Shown: positions 15,373 to 64,000, numbered from the stretch's first letter. The stretch: 64,000 nucleotides of DNA from Candidatus Woesearchaeota archaeon (GCA_043818175.1 JBDRGA010000052.1:24723-88722); one strand, 5' to 3'. Translations and numbers: made by a program. The notes: generated by a model from the sequence alone, not told the origin.

Positions 15373-15476
15373 TGAGTCCTGAGGGATTTGAACCCTCGAC
15401 CTATCGGTTTCTGGCCTTGCTCCTTTCAGAGCAATGGTTAAGAGCCGATTGCTCTACCGGACTGAGCTAAGGACCC
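15373..15476 (-). tRNA. tRNA-Lys(CTT) with canonical ~29-nt anticodon-loop intron
   Basis: GGGTCCT-TA-GCTC-AGTCCGGTA-GAGC-A-ATCGG-CTCTTA[intron ACCATTGCTCTGAAAGGAGCAAGGCCAGA]A-CCGAT-AGGTC-GAGGG-TTCAAAT-CCCTC-AGGACTC-A. Confidence 0.8.
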
Positions 15477-24335: not shown

Positions 24336-24665
24336 CTACCACAAAATATCTTCACGGAAACTCGGTTCCTGTGCAATATTTGCGACTAGGCCTGGCGTTA
24401 ATCTTGACCAAATCACTCTTGTGAGAGGAACACGGTCGTAATGTCCTTCACGGTCTACAAAATAGTTAGAAGGTCTGGCATCTACGAAAACTTCACTAGT
24501 GCCTGGGATTGGTCTCTCTGGCATTTGGTGACAATCCACATAAACAAGGGATTCCTTTGGGACTCCTCTGGATTCTGTTACCCATTTCGTTAAGCGCTCG
24601 TCTGGTTTTCCATCGAGTGTTACAATCATTATTTTTTCTAAAACATTTCCAAGATCGCCGGTCAT
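24336..24665 (-). CDS. hypothetical protein (109 aa) downstream of the DGR template repeat
   Basis: ORF only; not obviously Avd-like. Confidence 0.3.
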   Translation of the reverse strand: MTGDLGNVLEKIMIVTLDGKPDERLTKWVTESRGVPKESLVYVDCHQMPERPIPGTSEVFVDARPSNYFVDREGHYDRVPLTRVIWSRLTPGLVANIAQEPSFREDILW

Positions 24666-24965
24666 GCATATGAGAAACAGAATTAGTTATATAAATGTTT
24701 CGACCAGTAACCACTAATAAGTGGCTAATTGGCCGAAACGCTTAGATTCGGCGTTTATATGCCTTGGTGCGTCTTTCTTTCTTTAAACAAATAACGCATC
24801 AAGTTGTCTGGTTTGCGGCGCAAAAGTCGATTCGTGGCTTTTGAGCTTAGTTTTCTTGTTTATAAACAAAGAAGTGCCCCCACGTTTATAAAAATCTTGT
24901 CATCATTTTCAGTAAGAAGTGAGCCCCCAAAAAAAGAAAAATAATTGTCTCAGCCAATGGCTTGA

Positions 24966-25060
24966 CTATTCCAACAAGACGGGCGTTATTGTTGTTGAGG
25001 TTGTTGTTGTCGTTAGCATTGGAGTTGTTGTTGCCAACAGTCCTAACCCACACAGGCCGC
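24966..25060 (-). repeat. DGR template repeat (TR), 95 bp, AAC-codon rich on the minus strand
   Basis: On the minus strand it reads cggcctgtgtgggttaggactgttggcaacaacaactccaatgctaacgacaacaacaacctcaacaacaataacgcccgtcttgttgg. It matches VR at 25410..25504 except at TR adenines. Confidence 0.75.
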
Positions 25061-25269
25061 CTATATTAGCCATTTCACCTTCCTGAAAGCCACCACCATT
25101 TCGTTTCCGTCATGGTTGTATTTTATAGCAACGGTGTTGCCGTAGTGAAATGACGTGTAGTTCCAAGCCACTCTTTCTTTTTGCTGACACCACACATTGC
25201 TGTGTGATGTGGTAGCCGGGACAAGTGAAATAAAATGATAGAATATAAAAGAATTTCGAAAAAATGTTA

Positions 25270-26091
25270 TTACGCTCTGTATAGTTTTGAAACAGCGTCC
25301 AACATACCCGTTCTATTCAAGTCGGGATTGTTGATTACACCCATTATTTGATCGAGAGTAGGTTTAACCAACATACTACCTGATTTTTCGGGCGCAAGCG
25401 GCTCCGCCGCTACCCCAACAAGACGGGCGAGATTGACGTCGAGGCCGTAGCTGACGGTAGCATCGGAGTAGTAGTAGCCAACAGTCCAAACCCACACAGG
25501 CCGCAGGCCTTTTCTACCACTAGGGTAAAAGCCCATTGCATTCCTGTCAAAAATTCTCCCAGTAGTATCTTCAACCATCTTCTTATACGCTACCAACGCT
25601 GATTGGTCGCCTCCAGAAGCAAGATTCCAAAAAGCCGCACGAATTCCATCGGGATTAGCATACACATCCTCTCGCAATGCCCTAGCCGCAGATGGAGGAA
25701 TCACAAGAACACCCGCACCTTCCCTAATCGCATGATACTGATCCCTAGATACTTCCAAACCCCAATCATCCAGCTTTGATTTTGGATTAATTCCTTTAAC
25801 AAGCTCCTTTGCAACAGGATTAGCATTGTACCTAGCAAAAAGCACTTCATCACTACCGGCAGGATCAAGAACAGTGACGTCACCAATTACAACATAATTA
25901 TTCCTCAAAAGCATTCTGTCCGTCACATTTTCGCCCAGTGCTCTCCCGTAAATGAGTTGAGCACCATCCATCGGCTCTCTATTATCCTGCAAAAGCTTAG
26001 GCAGCTCCTTCCTCACTTCACCAAAGAAACTGGCTAGTCTGTCACGAGTACCACTCACTTGAACCTGTTCCCTGAATTGCAAATCGCCCAT
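25270..26091 (-). CDS. DGR variable (target) protein, 273 aa; VR encoded at 25410..25504
   Basis: The C-terminal region RPVWVWTVGYYYSDATVSYGLDVNLARLVG is the VR. The TR-encoded counterpart is RPVWVRTVGNNNSNANDNNNLNNNNARLVG. Confidence 0.7.
   Translation of the reverse strand: MGDLQFREQVQVSGTRDRLASFFGEVRKELPKLLQDNREPMDGAQLIYGRALGENVTDRMLLRNNYVVIGDVTVLDPAGSDEVLFARYNANPVAKELVKGINPKSKLDDWGLEVSRDQYHAIREGAGVLVIPPSAARALREDVYANPDGIRAAFWNLASGGDQSALVAYKKMVEDTTGRIFDRNAMGFYPSGRKGLRPVWVWTVGYYYSDATVSYGLDVNLARLVGVAAEPLAPEKSGSMLVKPTLDQIMGVINNPDLNRTGMLDAVSKLYRA
25410..25504 (-). repeat. DGR variable repeat (VR) inside the target gene
   Basis: 95-bp match to TR with about 22 substitutions, all at positions where the TR (coding strand) has A. 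Confidence 0.75.
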
Positions 26092-26270
26092 TTTTCTTCA
26101 ATCCCCCATACTTTTTTTAGCGTCTGAATTAAATGAATAATACTATTAGGTCAGTTCCAGTATTTAAACCTTTCGTTTATTTAGTTACTCTCTAGTGATT
26201 ACAGTGATGTCGCAGGCGGGGCTTTATAAACAACCAACCAGACTCTCGCACGTAATCCAAACAACACTAA

Positions 26271-27983
26271 ATGCCGACGCCTCCCCCCCCCGACACGACC
26301 TTTTACGACCAGATCTGCTCTTGTAAGAACCTCGAGCTGGCATTCCAAAGAGCAAGAAAGCACAAAACCACCAAGAAATACGTAATTGAATTTGAAGCCG
26401 ACCTTAAAGAAAACCTAGCTCAATTGAGAAATGAACTACTACTGCAAACATACAAGCCAAAACCCTTAGAAACGTTCATTCTACGAGACCCAAAAACAAG
26501 AAAGATTAGCAAATCAGACTTTCGCGACAGAATAATCCACCACGCCATCTGCAACATCATCGAACCCACCTTCGACAAGACATTCATCGACGACTCCTAC
26601 GCAAACAGAATAAAGAAAGGAACGCTCAATGCAATCAAAAGATTCGATAAATTCAAGAAAAAAGCATCACAAAACAACACAATACGATGCTACGTCCTAA
26701 AGGCAGACGTCAAAAGCTACTTCGACTCAGTAGACCACCAAGTACTGCTCAACATATTAGCAAGAAAAATCGATGATAAAAGAGTTCTCTGGCTCATCGA
26801 ACTAATACTCTCCAACCACAAAGCAAAACAAGAAAACAAAGGAATGCCACTAGGCAACCTAACAAGCCAATTTTTCGCCAACGTCTACCTGAACGAATTA
26901 GACCAGTTCGCAAAACACGAGCTAAAAGCAAAATACTACATCAGATACGTAGACGACTTCGTAATCCTACACCAATCAAGAAAACAATTAGAAGATTACA
27001 AAGAAAAAATAGACAACTTTCTCGCAGACACCCTTAAACTCAAGCTTCATCCAGACAAATCACACATCATCAAACTAGAAAAAGGAATCAACTTCTTAGG
27101 ATTCAGAATCTTCTTCCACCACCACTTACTAGTCAAAAGGAACATGAGAAAATTCGAGAAAAAACTCAATAGCATGAAACAAGAATACACAAACGGAAAA
27201 ATAACAAGAGAACAAGTAATTGAGAAATTTGAAGGATGGCTAGCGTATTCCGGCCATGCCAACACGTACAAGTACAGACGAAAAGTCACAAGCAAGTTCA
27301 ACAACCTATTCCCCGTTGAAGAAGACATCAAAGTCACTTCAGTGAAAAAGCACGAAAACTTCAACCACAAAGTCGATTCTAGCAAGATAGAATTCACACA
27401 ACAAAAAACACTACAACTATTCAAGAAAGGAATGCCAATAAAACAAATCGCCAGTCATAGAGGTGTTAAGGAAGGCACAATATGGAAACACGTAGCCAGT
27501 CTCATAGAGCACCACCAACTGAGGCTAAAACAAGTACTTCCGAACGAGAAGATTAAAAAAATTCTGGCAAACATCAAAACGCCAAACGATACACTAAAAG
27601 AAATAAAGGAACGATTACAAGACGAAACCATAACCTACAACGAGATAGAATGCGTACTTGCAAACACCAAGGGTAAACAGAGGAAGAAAAGCACTAACTA
27701 TTGGTTTTCATGGTACCAACGAACAAACTGCCACAGAAAATGCAACAACGACAAAACGCAAAGAGAATCGTGCAGAATAAAGTTCCAACAAATAGTCGCA
27801 AAGACCGCAAGTCTAGAATTCTCTAAAAAAGAATTCCTAAACTTCTTCAATGACCATGTTAACATCTGCATCCTGCCAAACGCTGAAAAGAGGAGATTCG
27901 TTTCCTGGAAGGAATTCAAAGACAAAAAACATGAAAAAGGGAGCCACAAACACGAAAAACCGCCGAGAAAGACCAGTGAATAG
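26271..27983 (+). CDS. reverse transcriptase, DGR-type, with ~190-aa C-terminal extension
   Basis: RT motifs: IRCYVLKADVKSYFDSVDH (motif 3); GMPLGNLTSQFFANVYLNELD (motif 4 with the DGR-diagnostic SQ in place of QG..SP); YIRYVDDFVIL (YVDD); INFLGFRI. Confidence 0.85.
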   Translation: MPTPPPPDTTFYDQICSCKNLELAFQRARKHKTTKKYVIEFEADLKENLAQLRNELLLQTYKPKPLETFILRDPKTRKISKSDFRDRIIHHAICNIIEPTFDKTFIDDSYANRIKKGTLNAIKRFDKFKKKASQNNTIRCYVLKADVKSYFDSVDHQVLLNILARKIDDKRVLWLIELILSNHKAKQENKGMPLGNLTSQFFANVYLNELDQFAKHELKAKYYIRYVDDFVILHQSRKQLEDYKEKIDNFLADTLKLKLHPDKSHIIKLEKGINFLGFRIFFHHHLLVKRNMRKFEKKLNSMKQEYTNGKITREQVIEKFEGWLAYSGHANTYKYRRKVTSKFNNLFPVEEDIKVTSVKKHENFNHKVDSSKIEFTQQKTLQLFKKGMPIKQIASHRGVKEGTIWKHVASLIEHHQLRLKQVLPNEKIKKILANIKTPNDTLKEIKERLQDETITYNEIECVLANTKGKQRKKSTNYWFSWYQRTNCHRKCNNDKTQRESCRIKFQQIVAKTASLEFSKKEFLNFFNDHVNICILPNAEKRRFVSWKEFKDKKHEKGSHKHEKPPRKTSE

Positions 27984-28049: not shown

Positions 28050-28577
28050 GTGGTTTTCACAATGACATTTACCTACAAGAGAGAGCCATTAGAAGAAGAC
28101 GAAATCCTAAATCTAAGGCGTTCTTGCCAGAATTTCGAGGAAGAACTAGTCATCAACATCCTACTGGATTCGGGCATGCGAGTCAGCGAACTAGCTAGCC
28201 TGAGGGAAGAAAACGTTAGCTGGCAGAGGAACTGCTTTACGATAATTGGCAAAGGCAACAAAAGAAGAATCGTACCAATGAGCAAAAGAACAAGACTACT
28301 CTTGCTAGACTGCTTGTCAAAAGAGAATAAGTTCCCATTAGCGATGAGAACTATCCAGAAGTACGTCAAGATCGTGGCAGAGAGAGCAAGGATAAGAAAG
28401 ACAGTAAGCCCCCACGTATTAAGACATACTTTTGCCGTCAGCTATTTGCACAAGGGAGGCAACCTAAGGGCATTGCAAGCAATTCTAGGCCACAGTAGCA
28501 TCACCACGACTGACATTTACTTGAATTACTCAGGCATAAGAGTGCTGGAGGACTTTGAGAAAGTATGGCAAGAGTAA
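28050..28577 (+). CDS. short tyrosine recombinase/integrase (catalytic domain only)
   Basis: HVLRHTFAVSYL...LGHSSITTTDIYLNY gives the R-H-R-Y catalytic residues. Confidence 0.75.
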   Translation: MVFTMTFTYKREPLEEDEILNLRRSCQNFEEELVINILLDSGMRVSELASLREENVSWQRNCFTIIGKGNKRRIVPMSKRTRLLLLDCLSKENKFPLAMRTIQKYVKIVAERARIRKTVSPHVLRHTFAVSYLHKGGNLRALQAILGHSSITTTDIYLNYSGIRVLEDFEKVWQE

Positions 28578-29098
28578 AATACAACAATGGCCTAGTCAGG
28601 GTTAGGATTACTCTTGATGAAGATGAGTGCCTGTTTAGGGAAAAGGAACTGGATTATTATGATAAAGAATACCTTGAACGACATAGTTATGAGTACGGAG
28701 AATTCGTACCAATAGGACAATATCACAAAGAAGGTTTCTATGTGAAGAGGAACACGAGGGAGTCATTAATGCACACTTTCTTGGTTCATAACATCAAGCA
28801 ACACTTAAGAAAACACACCAATGACATCCAAGTCAGGATAACCAAGAAGCCAGACATTGTATTCAAGAACAAGAATGGAAAAACTATCGCACTCGAAATA
28901 GAGACGGGAAAGAATTTCAAGAGACACAAGCAGAGAATCAAAGAAAAATTCATGCAAGCAAAAAAGAACTATCCTCTAATCTATATTGTTCTGGCTTCAA
29001 CAAAGAAGAAATCATATTACAAAAGACTTCTTCCAAGCATTCCGCTTCTTGTCAGAACAGATATCAACCGCTTCATACGCGCCCAGTTCAAGAGATAA
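28565..29098 (+). CDS. hypothetical protein, possibly PD-(D/E)xK nuclease-like
   Basis: KPDIVF...IALEIETGK arrangement weakly resembles a PD-(D/E)xK core. Speculative. Confidence 0.3.
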   Translation: MARVKYNNGLVRVRITLDEDECLFREKELDYYDKEYLERHSYEYGEFVPIGQYHKEGFYVKRNTRESLMHTFLVHNIKQHLRKHTNDIQVRITKKPDIVFKNKNGKTIALEIETGKNFKRHKQRIKEKFMQAKKNYPLIYIVLASTKKKSYYKRLLPSIPLLVRTDINRFIRAQFKR

Positions 29099-29222
29099 TG
29101 TATAGACTTATTATTACGGGTGGTGACGCTTGGGGGGAATGCCGTTATATTGGCAGAATTCTGCAAGATTAGGGGGTTGTGTTGGGGGTTCATATGACCA
29201 CTGTTTCACCCCCTAAATTTAT

Positions 29223-30002
29223 TCAATCAAAAATTCCTTGAGTGGTGGCTTGCAACCGTGTCAAGAGCTCGAATTTCTCTTTGAACTCTTCCAAACTCAA
29301 TTCGCCATTTGCAAAACGCAGCTTCAACAATAATATCGGATCATGAACTTCTCCAACAGTTCTTTCTTTCTTCTTCACGCTTCCAAAGGCCATATTGATC
29401 TTATTCTGCAAGTCAGAATTCGTAATGTAAGCATAAATTTGTGTGGTGTGAATGTCAACATGTCCCAAGCTTCGTTGAACATAATACAAGTCAACGCCCT
29501 TCTCAAGAAGATACGTTGCATACGTGTGCCTCAATGTGTGAAAGCTGTAGGCGTATCTTTGCTGACCAATTTCAGTTTTGAATGTTTTGATGCTTAAACC
29601 TGCTTTCAACAGATAGTTTCTGAATTTTAGGCTTAAAATATTGGCAGAGTACTTGTGGCCGAAGCTTGTACAAATCACAAACTCAGAATCTTTTTGCAAG
29701 CGAAACCATTTCTCCAATAAAGGCTTCATCTTGCTTGGCAACATTACAACGCGATCTTTGCTTCCTTTTCCTTCTCGCACAATGACTTTCTCGCTTTCCA
29801 GGTCAACATCCTGCTTTTTCAAGTTGCAAATTTCGCTAATTCGTAGACCGCAAAACAAAGAGACAAGACAGCCCATGAAGACTTGGCTGTCATCGATGGC
29901 CTCGAATAGTGCTAATAATTGTTTCTTGTTGAAAATATTCGGAAGTTTTCGGTTTGTGTTGGGTCGTGCAAAGTTCTTTCCCATTGGTTCACATCCTCGC
30001 AA
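29223..30002 (-). CDS. tyrosine recombinase/integrase (XerC/D-like)
   Basis: GLRISEICNLKKQDV; HTLRHTYATYLLEKGVDLYYVQRSLGHVDIHTTQIYAYI. Confidence 0.85.
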   Translation of the reverse strand: MRGCEPMGKNFARPNTNRKLPNIFNKKQLLALFEAIDDSQVFMGCLVSLFCGLRISEICNLKKQDVDLESEKVIVREGKGSKDRVVMLPSKMKPLLEKWFRLQKDSEFVICTSFGHKYSANILSLKFRNYLLKAGLSIKTFKTEIGQQRYAYSFHTLRHTYATYLLEKGVDLYYVQRSLGHVDIHTTQIYAYITNSDLQNKINMAFGSVKKKERTVGEVHDPILLLKLRFANGELSLEEFKEKFELLTRLQATTQGIFD

Positions 30003-30390
30003 CTAGGCTTAATCCGTATTCTCGTATGGATTGGCTGAGTTCGTTGAATCCCTCGTGCTTTCGCTTGAAAGCCTCGGAAATGCCCGATTTTTGGCTTATC
30101 TTCTTTTGTCTGACCTGAAACCGTATGTCCTCAGGAAGTCGCTCCAGTAAAAGCCAACGGTAAACTGTGAATGGATTATGCCCTTTTTCCATCAGCAAGG
30201 CGTAGATGTCTTTTTCGACTCCTAAGAGCAGATAGTCTTTCTTATTGTAGTGGTAATGTGCTAGTTTTCCCATAATTTCCTGAAGATTACGCACGTCCAC
30301 TTGAGGAAGACGACTCTTCAAAAGAATCCTAAACGATTCCAGCTTCTCAACAAAACTTTTCTGCATATTCGGGTCTTTCACGCACGTCAC
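29989..30390 (-). CDS. hypothetical protein; possible frameshifted N-terminal (core-binding) domain of the adjacent integrase
   Basis: Overlaps the integrase start by 14 nt in another frame. KDIYALLMEKGHNPFTVYRWLLLERL resembles Xer N-domain helices. Confidence 0.3.
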   Translation of the reverse strand: MTCVKDPNMQKSFVEKLESFRILLKSRLPQVDVRNLQEIMGKLAHYHYNKKDYLLLGVEKDIYALLMEKGHNPFTVYRWLLLERLPEDIRFQVRQKKISQKSGISEAFKRKHEGFNELSQSIREYGLSLVARM

Positions 30391-30496
30391 CTCGTTTAAA
30401 ACCCAAAAACCCCAAATACTGCCGACACAAAGCCCGGCTCACCAGATGCAGAATATATAAATCTTTCGCGTATTTACCACCAATTAGTAGCACTAG

Positions 30497-30739
30497 TGAC
30501 CCTGGGGGGATTCGAACCCCCGACCTACAGCTCGCTCCTCGTTTTCTCGATTGGGGGGACTTCAATCCGCAGATTGAATGTCGCCCATCGGGATCAAGGA
30601 ACGAAACCCTTGACCGTTAGGAGGCTGCCGCGCTATATGCCCAAGGTCTGCCCCTAGTTGAATGGGCTTGAGCTCCAGGGGAGCGAAACCCATATCGGGA
30701 TCAAGGAACGAAACCCTTGCCAGGCTGCGCTACAGGGCC
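30497..30739 (-). tRNA. tRNA-Arg(CCT) with two long introns (D-loop ~80 nt and anticodon-loop ~85 nt)
   Basis: Acceptor GGCCCTG/CAGGGTC with A73. GCGC-AGCCTGG...ATA-GCGC D arm interrupted. GCAGC-CTCCTA[intron]A-GCTGT anticodon arm. AGGTC variable loop. GGGGG-TTCGAAT-CCCCC T arm. Confidence 0.7.
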
Positions 30740-30876
30740 ATTGTCACAGCAGTTGCAGCGTCTTTATAAACATATTTGCGCTGTAATGAAATGAAGGATA
30801 GTGAAGTTTGCTTGGTGTTTGATGCTACTGTATAATAACAACATATGCAAACTTTTATATATTGTAGATTTTACCC

Positions 30877-63266: not shown

Positions 63267-63549
63267 GTAGGACCAATATCATAGCTAGCATATAATCTTT
63301 TTCTTAGGCCGACTAATGTCAAGCTGGTTCACCGACCAAAACGCTTATAAAGGGGTCGCGGTTCCACCTGATACATCGCCACCAAAGGAACCCGCTCCAA
63401 GTCAGCGAGCGAGTATTTCTAAGCGAGAAAAAATGAGTGCTTGAAGTAATACTTCATGCATGAGGGAATCACGAATACGAAAATTGACGTTATAGAAAGT
63501 TCAGCCGAAGAAATTTACGGAAATCATACCGTAATCGCGAAGTACAGCG

Positions 63550-64000
<451 letters not shown>

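Follow-up and report, generated by a model that had tools for sequence, protein, structure and literature searches.

The 64,000-nt stretch of Candidatus Woesearchaeota DNA analyzed here (the window; JBDRGA010000052.1:24723-88722) very probably carries a chromosomal diversity-generating retroelement (DGR) of the DPANN/Nanoarchaeota type. DGRs act by mutagenic retrohoming: the RNA of a template repeat (TR) is copied into cDNA that is mutagenized at adenines, and this cDNA replaces a variable repeat (VR). Every DGR feature looked for is present except Avd: a DGR-type reverse transcriptase (RT), TR/VR differences confined to adenines, a VR in the 3' part of the target gene, the initiation of mutagenic homing signal (IMH) with its TR counterpart IMH*, and a hairpin. 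Together with the lectin fold of the target, these features uphold the DGR interpretation that the original prediction had drawn from the sequence. As a DGR, the locus is of little value alone because thousands have already been catalogued in DPANN archaea. A match to the Rfam family RT-16 abuts its TR, however, and suggests that RT-16 is the 5' domain of the template RNA (TR-RNA) in DPANN DGRs.

Repeats, reverse transcriptase and target protein

The two repeats lie on the minus strand, where the original prediction had placed them (Table 1), and align over 95 nt without a gap at 81% identity. The alignment yields 18 mismatches, so the count of "about 22" made earlier was too high, but every one of them sits at a TR adenine (8 A>T, 8 A>G and 2 A>C) and none at another base, as had been claimed; mismatches beyond the adenines, named in advance as one finding that would count against a DGR, are absent from the full alignment. 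The chance of such a distribution, (30/95)^18, is ~1e-9. Two of the 18, at 24969-24970 (GG in the VR vs AA in the TR), are a fixed IMH/IMH* difference rather than ordinary variable sites, because published Nanoarchaeota DGRs carry TGGGGT vs TGGAAT: those from DUSEL4 have TGGGGT as the IMH, TGGAAT as the IMH* and a GRA-triloop hairpin inside the target open reading frame (ORF; Paul et al. 2015, PMC4372165). In the window, GC-rich GCCCGTCTTGTTGG is common to both repeats; the VR continues with GGTAG and the TR with AATAG, and the two diverge beyond, in agreement with the expected position of the IMH at the 3' end of the VR; comparable GCGCC-GRA-GGCGC hairpins occur in 10 related loci.

In the target frame, the TR reads R P V W V R T V G NNN S N A N D NNN L NNNN A R L V G I and the VR reads ...W T V G YYY S D A T V S Y G L D V N L A R L V G V, matching the translations first given. 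The TR could recode up to 15 codons (13 of them AAY), or roughly 6e15 to 3e16 peptides, with stop codons unreachable. The VR has received one past round of A-to-N transfer. Remote VR copies, a search suggested by the original prediction, were sought with a pattern that has N at every TR adenine (0 matches expected); the scan returned only the TR and the VR, and thus there is no remote VR within the 64-kb window.

The RT, located and read correctly in the original prediction, joins an RT domain (Pfam RVT_1, aa 75-280, E=1.4e-26) to an HTH_40 domain (aa 376-463, E=1.9e-21); its motif 4 is PLGNLTSQ (aa 193-200), YVDD occupies aa 226-229, and GNLTSQFFANVYL is present in the ORF. The best sequence match in the PDB is the Bordetella DGR RT (bRT; 8ub7 chain A) at 146 bits, with group II intron RTs at <=89 bits. 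The same structure is the top Foldseek match of the AlphaFold2 (AF2) model (predicted local distance difference test score, pLDDT, 82.8), with E=9.5e-18 and a template modeling (TM) score of 0.80, and retron RTs rank far lower; this placement, which goes against a grouping with other RT classes, rests on similarity of sequence and fold. RT residues R77, L194, G195, Q200, D146 and D228/D229 align with R74, I181, G182, Q187, D138 and D215/D216, which make the template, dNTP and catalytic contacts of bRT (bioRxiv 10.1101/2023.10.23.563531). As judged from this alignment, the RT keeps the adenine-mutagenesis residues of the Bordetella enzyme.

Could this be the RT of another retroelement (a group II intron, a retron or an Abi/DRT system) beside an unrelated duplication? 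The top NCBIfam model is indeed the group II intron RT/maturase TIGR04416, the DRT and Abi models also match weakly, and some databases label homologs as "retron-type". Yet TIGR04416 scores 179 bits vs a cut-off of 300 and the DRT and Abi scores fall far below theirs, the DGR enzyme 8ub7 is best by sequence and by fold, no intron RNA domains accompany the RT (the Rfam match being RT-16), and chance would have to account for adenine-only mismatches; such an origin is extremely improbable. Considered as a whole, the locus was rejected both as a group II intron (the TIGR04416 score, and no group II Rfam matches in the window) and as a retron (an RT closest to DGR RTs and no effector, with a resemblance limited to RNA topology).

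The RT belongs to a large, highly conserved family with >6,900 matches of RVT_1+HTH_40 architecture, mostly from Woesearchaeota and Nanoarchaeota, and at least 593 loci in GTDB species genomes. Its C-terminal 100 residues are helical and belong to no Pfam family. Residues C487, C491, C501 and C533 and their neighbors are invariant in a 35-sequence alignment (A3; window 27729-27871); within the RT extension, this Cys region may serve as a module that binds metal.

The target ORF has the extent first proposed for it, with the VR near the C terminus and ~46 residues beyond. Pfam and NCBIfam give no match to the protein, and a word-indexed search of 5.8 billion proteins retrieves only the target itself (a hypothetical protein from one contig of a Candidatus Woesearchaeota metagenome-assembled genome, MAG). 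An exhaustive HMMER search of 1.84 billion representative proteins recovers 78 relatives of 250-290 aa, which share a conserved scaffold interrupted by a hypervariable, N/Y/S/D/G/A-rich stretch exactly at the VR. The profile of this family matches a single solved structure, AvpA (5IOO, E=4.4e-5), and 5ioo_A is also the only significant PDB match that Foldseek finds for the AF2 model of the target (pLDDT 79.6; E=2.7e-5, TM 0.70), with 15% identity in the structural alignment. AvpA is the variable protein of a Nanoarchaeota DGR in which the VR lies on terminal beta strands and a helical tail forms the C-terminal part beyond it (Handa et al. 2016, PMC5006420); in the target model, strands at 195-201, 212-215 and 222-224 precede a disordered stretch and two helices, as in AvpA. 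By family profile and modeled fold, which answer the C-type lectin search proposed at the outset, the target is an AvpA-like protein with a C-type lectin fold.

Table 1. Positions of the DGR components in the window; RNA roles and pairing partners are predictions.
Feature	Position	Strand	Description
Oligo-T tract	24929..24945	minus	AUUAUUUUUCUUUUUUU; putative archaeal TR-RNA terminator, after Tb
Tb	24946..24955	minus	GGCUGAGACA; predicted to pair with S5, closing the RNA
Ta	24956..24965	minus	UCAAGCCAUU; immediately 3' of TR, predicted to pair with S3
IMH*	24966-24984	minus	GCCCGTCTTGTTGGAATAG; TR end
TR	24966-25060	minus	95 nt, 30 adenines, 13 AAY codons
RT-16 RNA (RF03019)	25061..25221	minus	Probable structured 5' domain of TR-RNA; abuts TR
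CUACACG motif	25154..25160	minus	Conserved; candidate priming-nucleotide site
S3	25163..25172	minus	AGUGGCUUGG; RT-16 stem 1, 3' strand; predicted partner of Ta
S5	25214..25223	minus	UGUCCCGGCU; extreme 5' strand, predicted to pair with Tb
TATA-like box	25243..25250	minus	TTTTATAT; putative TR-RNA promoter, 20 nt past target stop codon, ~20 nt before RNA 5' strand
Target (variable protein) gene	25270..26091	minus	273 aa; predicted AvpA-like C-type lectin fold
Hairpin/cruciform	25397..25411	minus	AGCGGC-GGA-GCCGCT, GRA triloop; in target ORF, directly 3' of VR
IMH	25410..25428	minus	GCCCGTCTTGTTGGGGTAG; contains TGGGGT
VR	25410-25504	minus	Encodes aa 197-227 of 273-aa target
Divergent intergenic region	26092..26270	both	179 nt; putative TATA-like boxes both ways, GCTTTATAAAC before RT
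RT gene	26271..27983	plus	570 aa; RVT_1, HTH_40, helical C-terminal region

RT-16 and the template RNA

The RT-16 match spans the full model (positions 1-158/158) at 66 bits vs a gathering score of 50 (E=1.9e-9), and its end coincides exactly with the TR 5' start (25061/25060). RT-16 also borders the TR directly, at its 5' end and on its strand, in 12 of 13 related DGR loci, irrespective of the orientation of the RT gene. Most of 58 TRs are preceded by the RT-16 motifs AUAAAAUACA and CUACAYG. The families RT-1 to RT-19 were described merely as "near RT genes"; RT-10 is the Bordetella spacer, and DGR or retron roles were speculated for others (Weinberg et al. 2017, PMC5737381). Other papers that name RT-16 list it by name alone and give it no function. 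An earlier description of RT-16 as part of the TR-RNA, or of the helix between the TR flanks set out below, was not found in the openly readable literature, subscription literature lying outside the search.

The region 5' of RT-16 and the region 3' of the TR both carry archaeal-like signals (Table 1). A T-rich TATA-like box lies 18-23 nt upstream of the RNA 5' strand in 13 related loci; on the other side, a T-run follows Tb within <=14 nt in 11 of 33 loci, often 20-35 nt after the TR. Judging by these signals, the TR-RNA is probably a discrete RNA of ~280-300 nt with its own promoter and terminator. A TR-RNA that is transcribed separately would leave the RT gene free to sit anywhere.

The RNA flanks of the TR appear to pair with each other. 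Across loci, the 10-12 nt just 5' of CUACAYG (S3) are complementary to the 10-12 nt directly 3' of the TR (Ta), and the following segment Tb, typically GCUGGGAC, is complementary to S5, typically GUCCCAGC, at the extreme 5' end. An ungapped alignment of 31 loci, anchored on CUACAYG and AAUAG only and fitted to no structure, extends the first of these pairings into a 13-bp helix, in which the RT-16 sequence ending in CUA (S3+CUA) meets the TR-terminal UAG and the next 10 nt (UAG+Ta). Pairing holds in 76.7% of cells, whereas column shuffles give 59.0 +/- 1.7% and none of 500 attains the observed value, and the covariation score is 0.523 vs 0.218 in shuffles; because the loci are phylogenetically related, these shuffle statistics overstate independence and are not probabilities. 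Sliding the partners by 1-3 columns drops pairing to 30-41%. Both-sided changes are seen in 12 of the 13 pairs, and the second nucleotide of CUA forms U-A with the IMH* end in 24 loci and C-G in 7, being unpaired in none. In the same 31 loci, the start of the CUACAYG motif covaries with the end of IMH* as CUA-UAG, CCA-UGA and UUA-UAA (alignment A5; window 25158-25160, 24966-24968); the terminal triplet of IMH* is thus constrained by RNA pairing as well as by homing.

Duplex energies point the same way. S3 pairs with its own Ta at -10.6 kcal/mol vs -6.3 with a foreign partner (permutation p<=5e-5). For S5:Tb, the values are -18.7 vs -14.5 kcal/mol (permutation p<=5e-5), and reversed-sequence controls for the two helices show little effect. 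Support for S5:Tb rests on the own-vs-foreign test because the contiguous-helix finder caught A/U-rich runs in ~1/3 of loci; compensatory S5/Tb pairs include GUCCCAGC/GCUGGGAC, GUCUCAGC/GCUGAGAC, GUCCUCGC/GCGAGGAU, CCCUGCAG/CUGCAGGG and CCCCUUUUGU/ACAAAAGGGG. When the 280-nt RNA of the window (25223 to 24944) is folded, the long-range structure appears in both the minimum free energy (-84.2 kcal/mol, z = -2.6) and the centroid predictions, with S3:Ta base-pair probabilities of 0.94-0.999 for the central 8 of 10 pairs and 0.52 and 0.31 at the ends. The published account of RT-16 (PMC5737381) does not give the exact position at the TR 5' end, and the Rfam model, which the window element matches over its full length and above the gathering score, omits the covarying partner that the 3' strand of stem 1 finds beyond the TR.

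Besides the relatedness of the loci, several observations weigh against the long-range fold: (i) S5 and S3 are also complementary to each other, forming stem 1 of the Rfam model (self vs cross p<=5e-5); (ii) S5:Tb of the window carries one C.A mismatch; and (iii) in a fixed register, the S3:Ta base-pair probability is >0.5 in only 14 of 32 loci, a test that under-counts the helix where its register shifts by 1 nt, the window included. The complementarity of S5 and S3 implies that local and long-range folds compete, and the TR-RNA may alternate between two conformers.

A proposed model for priming without Avd

How would such an element make its cDNA? The proposed mechanism envisages three transcription units: the RT gene on the plus strand and, on the minus strand, the target gene and a template RNA of ~280-300 nt. 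The template RNA would start ~20 nt past its own TATA box and consist of the RT-16 domain, the 95-nt TR, a 20-nt tail and an oligo-U end. The RT would copy the TR into cDNA, misincorporating opposite adenines; the cDNA would replace the VR, guided by the IMH (TGGGGT) and the GGA-loop hairpin, and thereby recode the binding surface of the AvpA-like lectin-fold protein. In the priming part of the model, the covarying helix (S3+CUA with UAG+Ta) would be the template:primer duplex and cDNA would be primed from a 2'-OH in CUACAYG, with the invariant A of CUA placed opposite the U of the TR-terminal UAG, beside the conserved unpaired CAYG. The primer strand would come from upstream of the template, so that structured domain, template and closing strand follow one another in the topology of retron msr-msd and a2-a1; synthesis would read through the TR until the stable core of RT-16 next to it arrests the RT, and the HTH_40/Cys extension of the RT would substitute for Avd by holding the RNA. 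This combination of cis-priming at CUACAYG, read-through, arrest at RT-16 and replacement of Avd is put forward tentatively, as a nearly balanced call.

The main competing view takes the helices as real but gives them another role: a "stop" duplex like the avd:Sp (spacer) duplex, a scaffold for RT binding or a stem that protects or processes the RNA ends, with priming elsewhere, for example from a 3' tail fold-back or nicked target DNA. In Bordetella, spacer A56 acts as the cis primer of the cDNA and is paired with TR 118 beside template G117, and a second duplex between the upstream and downstream flanks of the TR organizes the ribonucleoprotein (bioRxiv 10.1101/2023.10.23.563531). That second duplex is a stop/organizing element rather than a primer and favors the competing view, as does the fact that present evidence does not pinpoint the priming nucleotide: the site follows purely from pairing geometry, which tells against the priming model. 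Yet the helix stops exactly at the TR 3' end and takes in the last 3 nt of IMH*; the invariant A of CUA faces the U of UAG beside a strictly conserved unpaired CAYG; this geometry equals that of Sp A56:TR 118 beside TR G117; and the tail is 20-30 nt in most relatives, which leaves little space for a separate 3' primer hairpin. A non-priming role for the helices is conceivable, if rather doubtful.

Comparison with known systems shows where the priming model would depart from them. The Bordetella BPP-1 DGR (mtd-avd-TR-brt) shares with the window adenine-specific transfer, IMH/IMH*, a downstream hairpin, the RT fold and key residues, and RNA segments on either side of the TR that base-pair with one another as well as with the TR 3' end. 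Unlike BPP-1, the window has no Avd and its RT carries a 220-aa C-terminal extension (HTH_40 and the helical region that holds the cysteines); the large structured RNA is found on the 5' side of the TR rather than the 3' side (the spacer, Rfam RT-10); an upstream segment supplies the strand predicted to pair with the TR 3' end; the target is of another C-type lectin subclass; and the transcription signals are archaeal. The RNA of retrons (msr-msd, a1/a2 inverted repeats, 2'-OH priming) likewise combines a structured domain and a template with a 3' strand whose pairing partner is a segment located 5' of the structured RNA, setting a conserved nucleotide beside the 3' end of the template. Retrons differ from the window in that its RT is of the DGR clade, its presumed product is a homing cDNA instead of multicopy single-stranded DNA (msDNA), and no effector gene is present.

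The element is presumably still active. Counting against the DGR reading, the target protein in its exact form occurs in a single contig, with no direct sign of current activity, an exact-pattern scan of Joint Genome Institute (JGI) metagenome contigs with N at TR adenines found no VR variants, and the locus has no Avd-like gene and no ORF between target, TR and RT. The lack of population heterogeneity in those contigs, the single database copy of the target and the missing Avd would also fit a once-active DGR that is now a relic, its VR holding the scars of past homing and its protein no longer diversified. Against a relic stand an intact RT ORF with all catalytic and mutagenesis residues conserved; an intact TR, IMH, hairpin, RT-16 and set of long-range helices; and a pure AAY TR with zero non-A differences from the VR over 95 nt, where quick decay would be expected if the element were unused. 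Loss of function is accordingly considered unlikely, and a working DGR is the preferred reading.

Relatives, neighboring region and significance

Where does the element reside? The window contains the 5' end of an archaeal small subunit (SSU) rRNA gene and GatD/GatE-like genes, and the target is recorded from a Woesearchaeota MAG; the element is thus chromosomal, in a DPANN archaeon. The SSU rRNA gene is present as its 5' 450 nt, at 63549-64000, and runs off the window end (404 bits). Nanoarchaeota DGRs have no recognizable Avd, and their VR is followed by ~45 residues (PMC4372165, PMC5006420). The window resembles these DPANN elements in its IMH TGGGGT vs IMH* TGGAAT, the GRA-triloop hairpin in the target ORF, an internal VR with ~46 residues beyond, an AvpA-like lectin-fold target that is an orphan in sequence, no clear Avd and a DPANN host. 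It differs from them in an RT gene divergent from the target-TR unit, in the low identity (15%) of the target to AvpA, and in RT-16 and TR 3'-flank pairing, which are seen at the window and were not found described for them in the openly readable literature.

The arrangement, with a divergent RT and a TR 3' of the target, had been called atypical, a view that the relatives do not support. Self-BLAST for adenine-specific repeats in 82 related loci and the window found TR/VR pairs in 56 of 83; in all 56, VR and TR share a strand and the TR follows 300-500 nt downstream, so that the order of target and then TR is the rule in the clade. RT gene placement varies: immediately downstream on the same strand in the majority of loci, downstream and convergent in L004, L009, L020-L022 and L071, and divergent, as in the window, in L005, L007 and L008. 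Found in three related loci, the divergent layout is thus a recurrent variant and not really atypical.

The element was originally given the span 24336-27983. A DGR does lie there, but the 109-aa ORF at 24336-24665 within that span is not part of it: as an Avd candidate or other component this ORF was rejected, being acidic (isoelectric point 5.1), free of Pfam/NCBIfam matches, without relatives in the 82 related loci and located past a conserved noncoding block. The remark that no Avd-like gene is evident holds, this acidic, unconserved ORF being the only small neighbor.

Some relatives carry more than one VR. One TR matches two or three adenine-variant VRs in L009, L019, L039, L044, L049, L063, L071, L076 and L077; a single RT/TR thus serves several targets. 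An RT that is 68% identical to the RT of the window (L001 6001-7707, L002 3135-4841) has a provirus-like context, with HK97-type capsid, cement, methylase and integrase genes as neighbors, and the self-BLAST scan detected no TR/VR pair there.

Just past the putative TR-RNA terminator lies the noncoding block, ~250 nt at 24688-24935, which is ~78% identical to L008 1464-1730 and is more conserved with respect to L008 than RT gene DNA (78% vs 68%), although the next genes differ. Several TATA-like boxes lie in the block, as does a long hairpin (GTTTCGACCAGTAACCACT...AGTGGCTAATTGGCCGAAAC), and Rfam has no match to it. On the other side, the region 28050-30390 encodes two tyrosine recombinases (one of 175 aa, plus strand, immediately following the RT gene, and one of 259 aa, minus strand) and two small basic ORFs. 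The 175-aa recombinase shares 82% identity with the ORF that comes next after the RT gene in L008, and the 259-aa recombinase and a 133-aa ORF recur beside DGR RTs in L009 and L074; the recombinase genes may be a mobile module that travels with the DGR.

Farther along, at 30494-30745 on the minus strand, lies a tRNA-like acceptor and T-arm, GGGGGTTCGAATCCCCC, in which the acceptor 3' strand pairs with GGCCCTG ~250 nt upstream; its long inserts contain a perfect 26-nt direct repeat (30587-30612, 30694-30719). Neither ARAGORN nor the Rfam tRNA model calls this element, which may be a multi-intron tRNA beside an integrase. Direct repeats of the tRNA-like 3' end of the att type, sought as a sign of integration, were not found, and GC content is not distinctive. 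The sole Rfam tRNA in the 64 kb lies at 15373-15476 on the minus strand; its length of 104 nt makes an intron probable. ARAGORN finds no tRNA anywhere in the window.

What would these observations mean for DGRs of DPANN archaea? RT-16, an orphan Rfam family, gains a probable role and an exact genomic position, and the likely full template RNA of Avd-less archaeal DGRs is defined from promoter through 5' domain, TR and tail to terminator. Extended to these elements in general, the proposal that they use a separately transcribed, self-contained, retron-like template RNA with an RT-16 5' domain, 5' and 3' ends paired to each other, cis-priming from upstream (a mirror image of the Bordetella spacer) and an HTH_40/Cys extension in place of Avd is a possibility to be held with some reserve. 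It supplies a specific, mutationally testable model for how cDNA could be primed when both Avd and a 3' spacer are lacking. If true, this model would link the RNA architectures of DGRs and retrons and would describe a compact two-part system, one RT and one RNA of ~290 nt, open to reconstitution or engineering.

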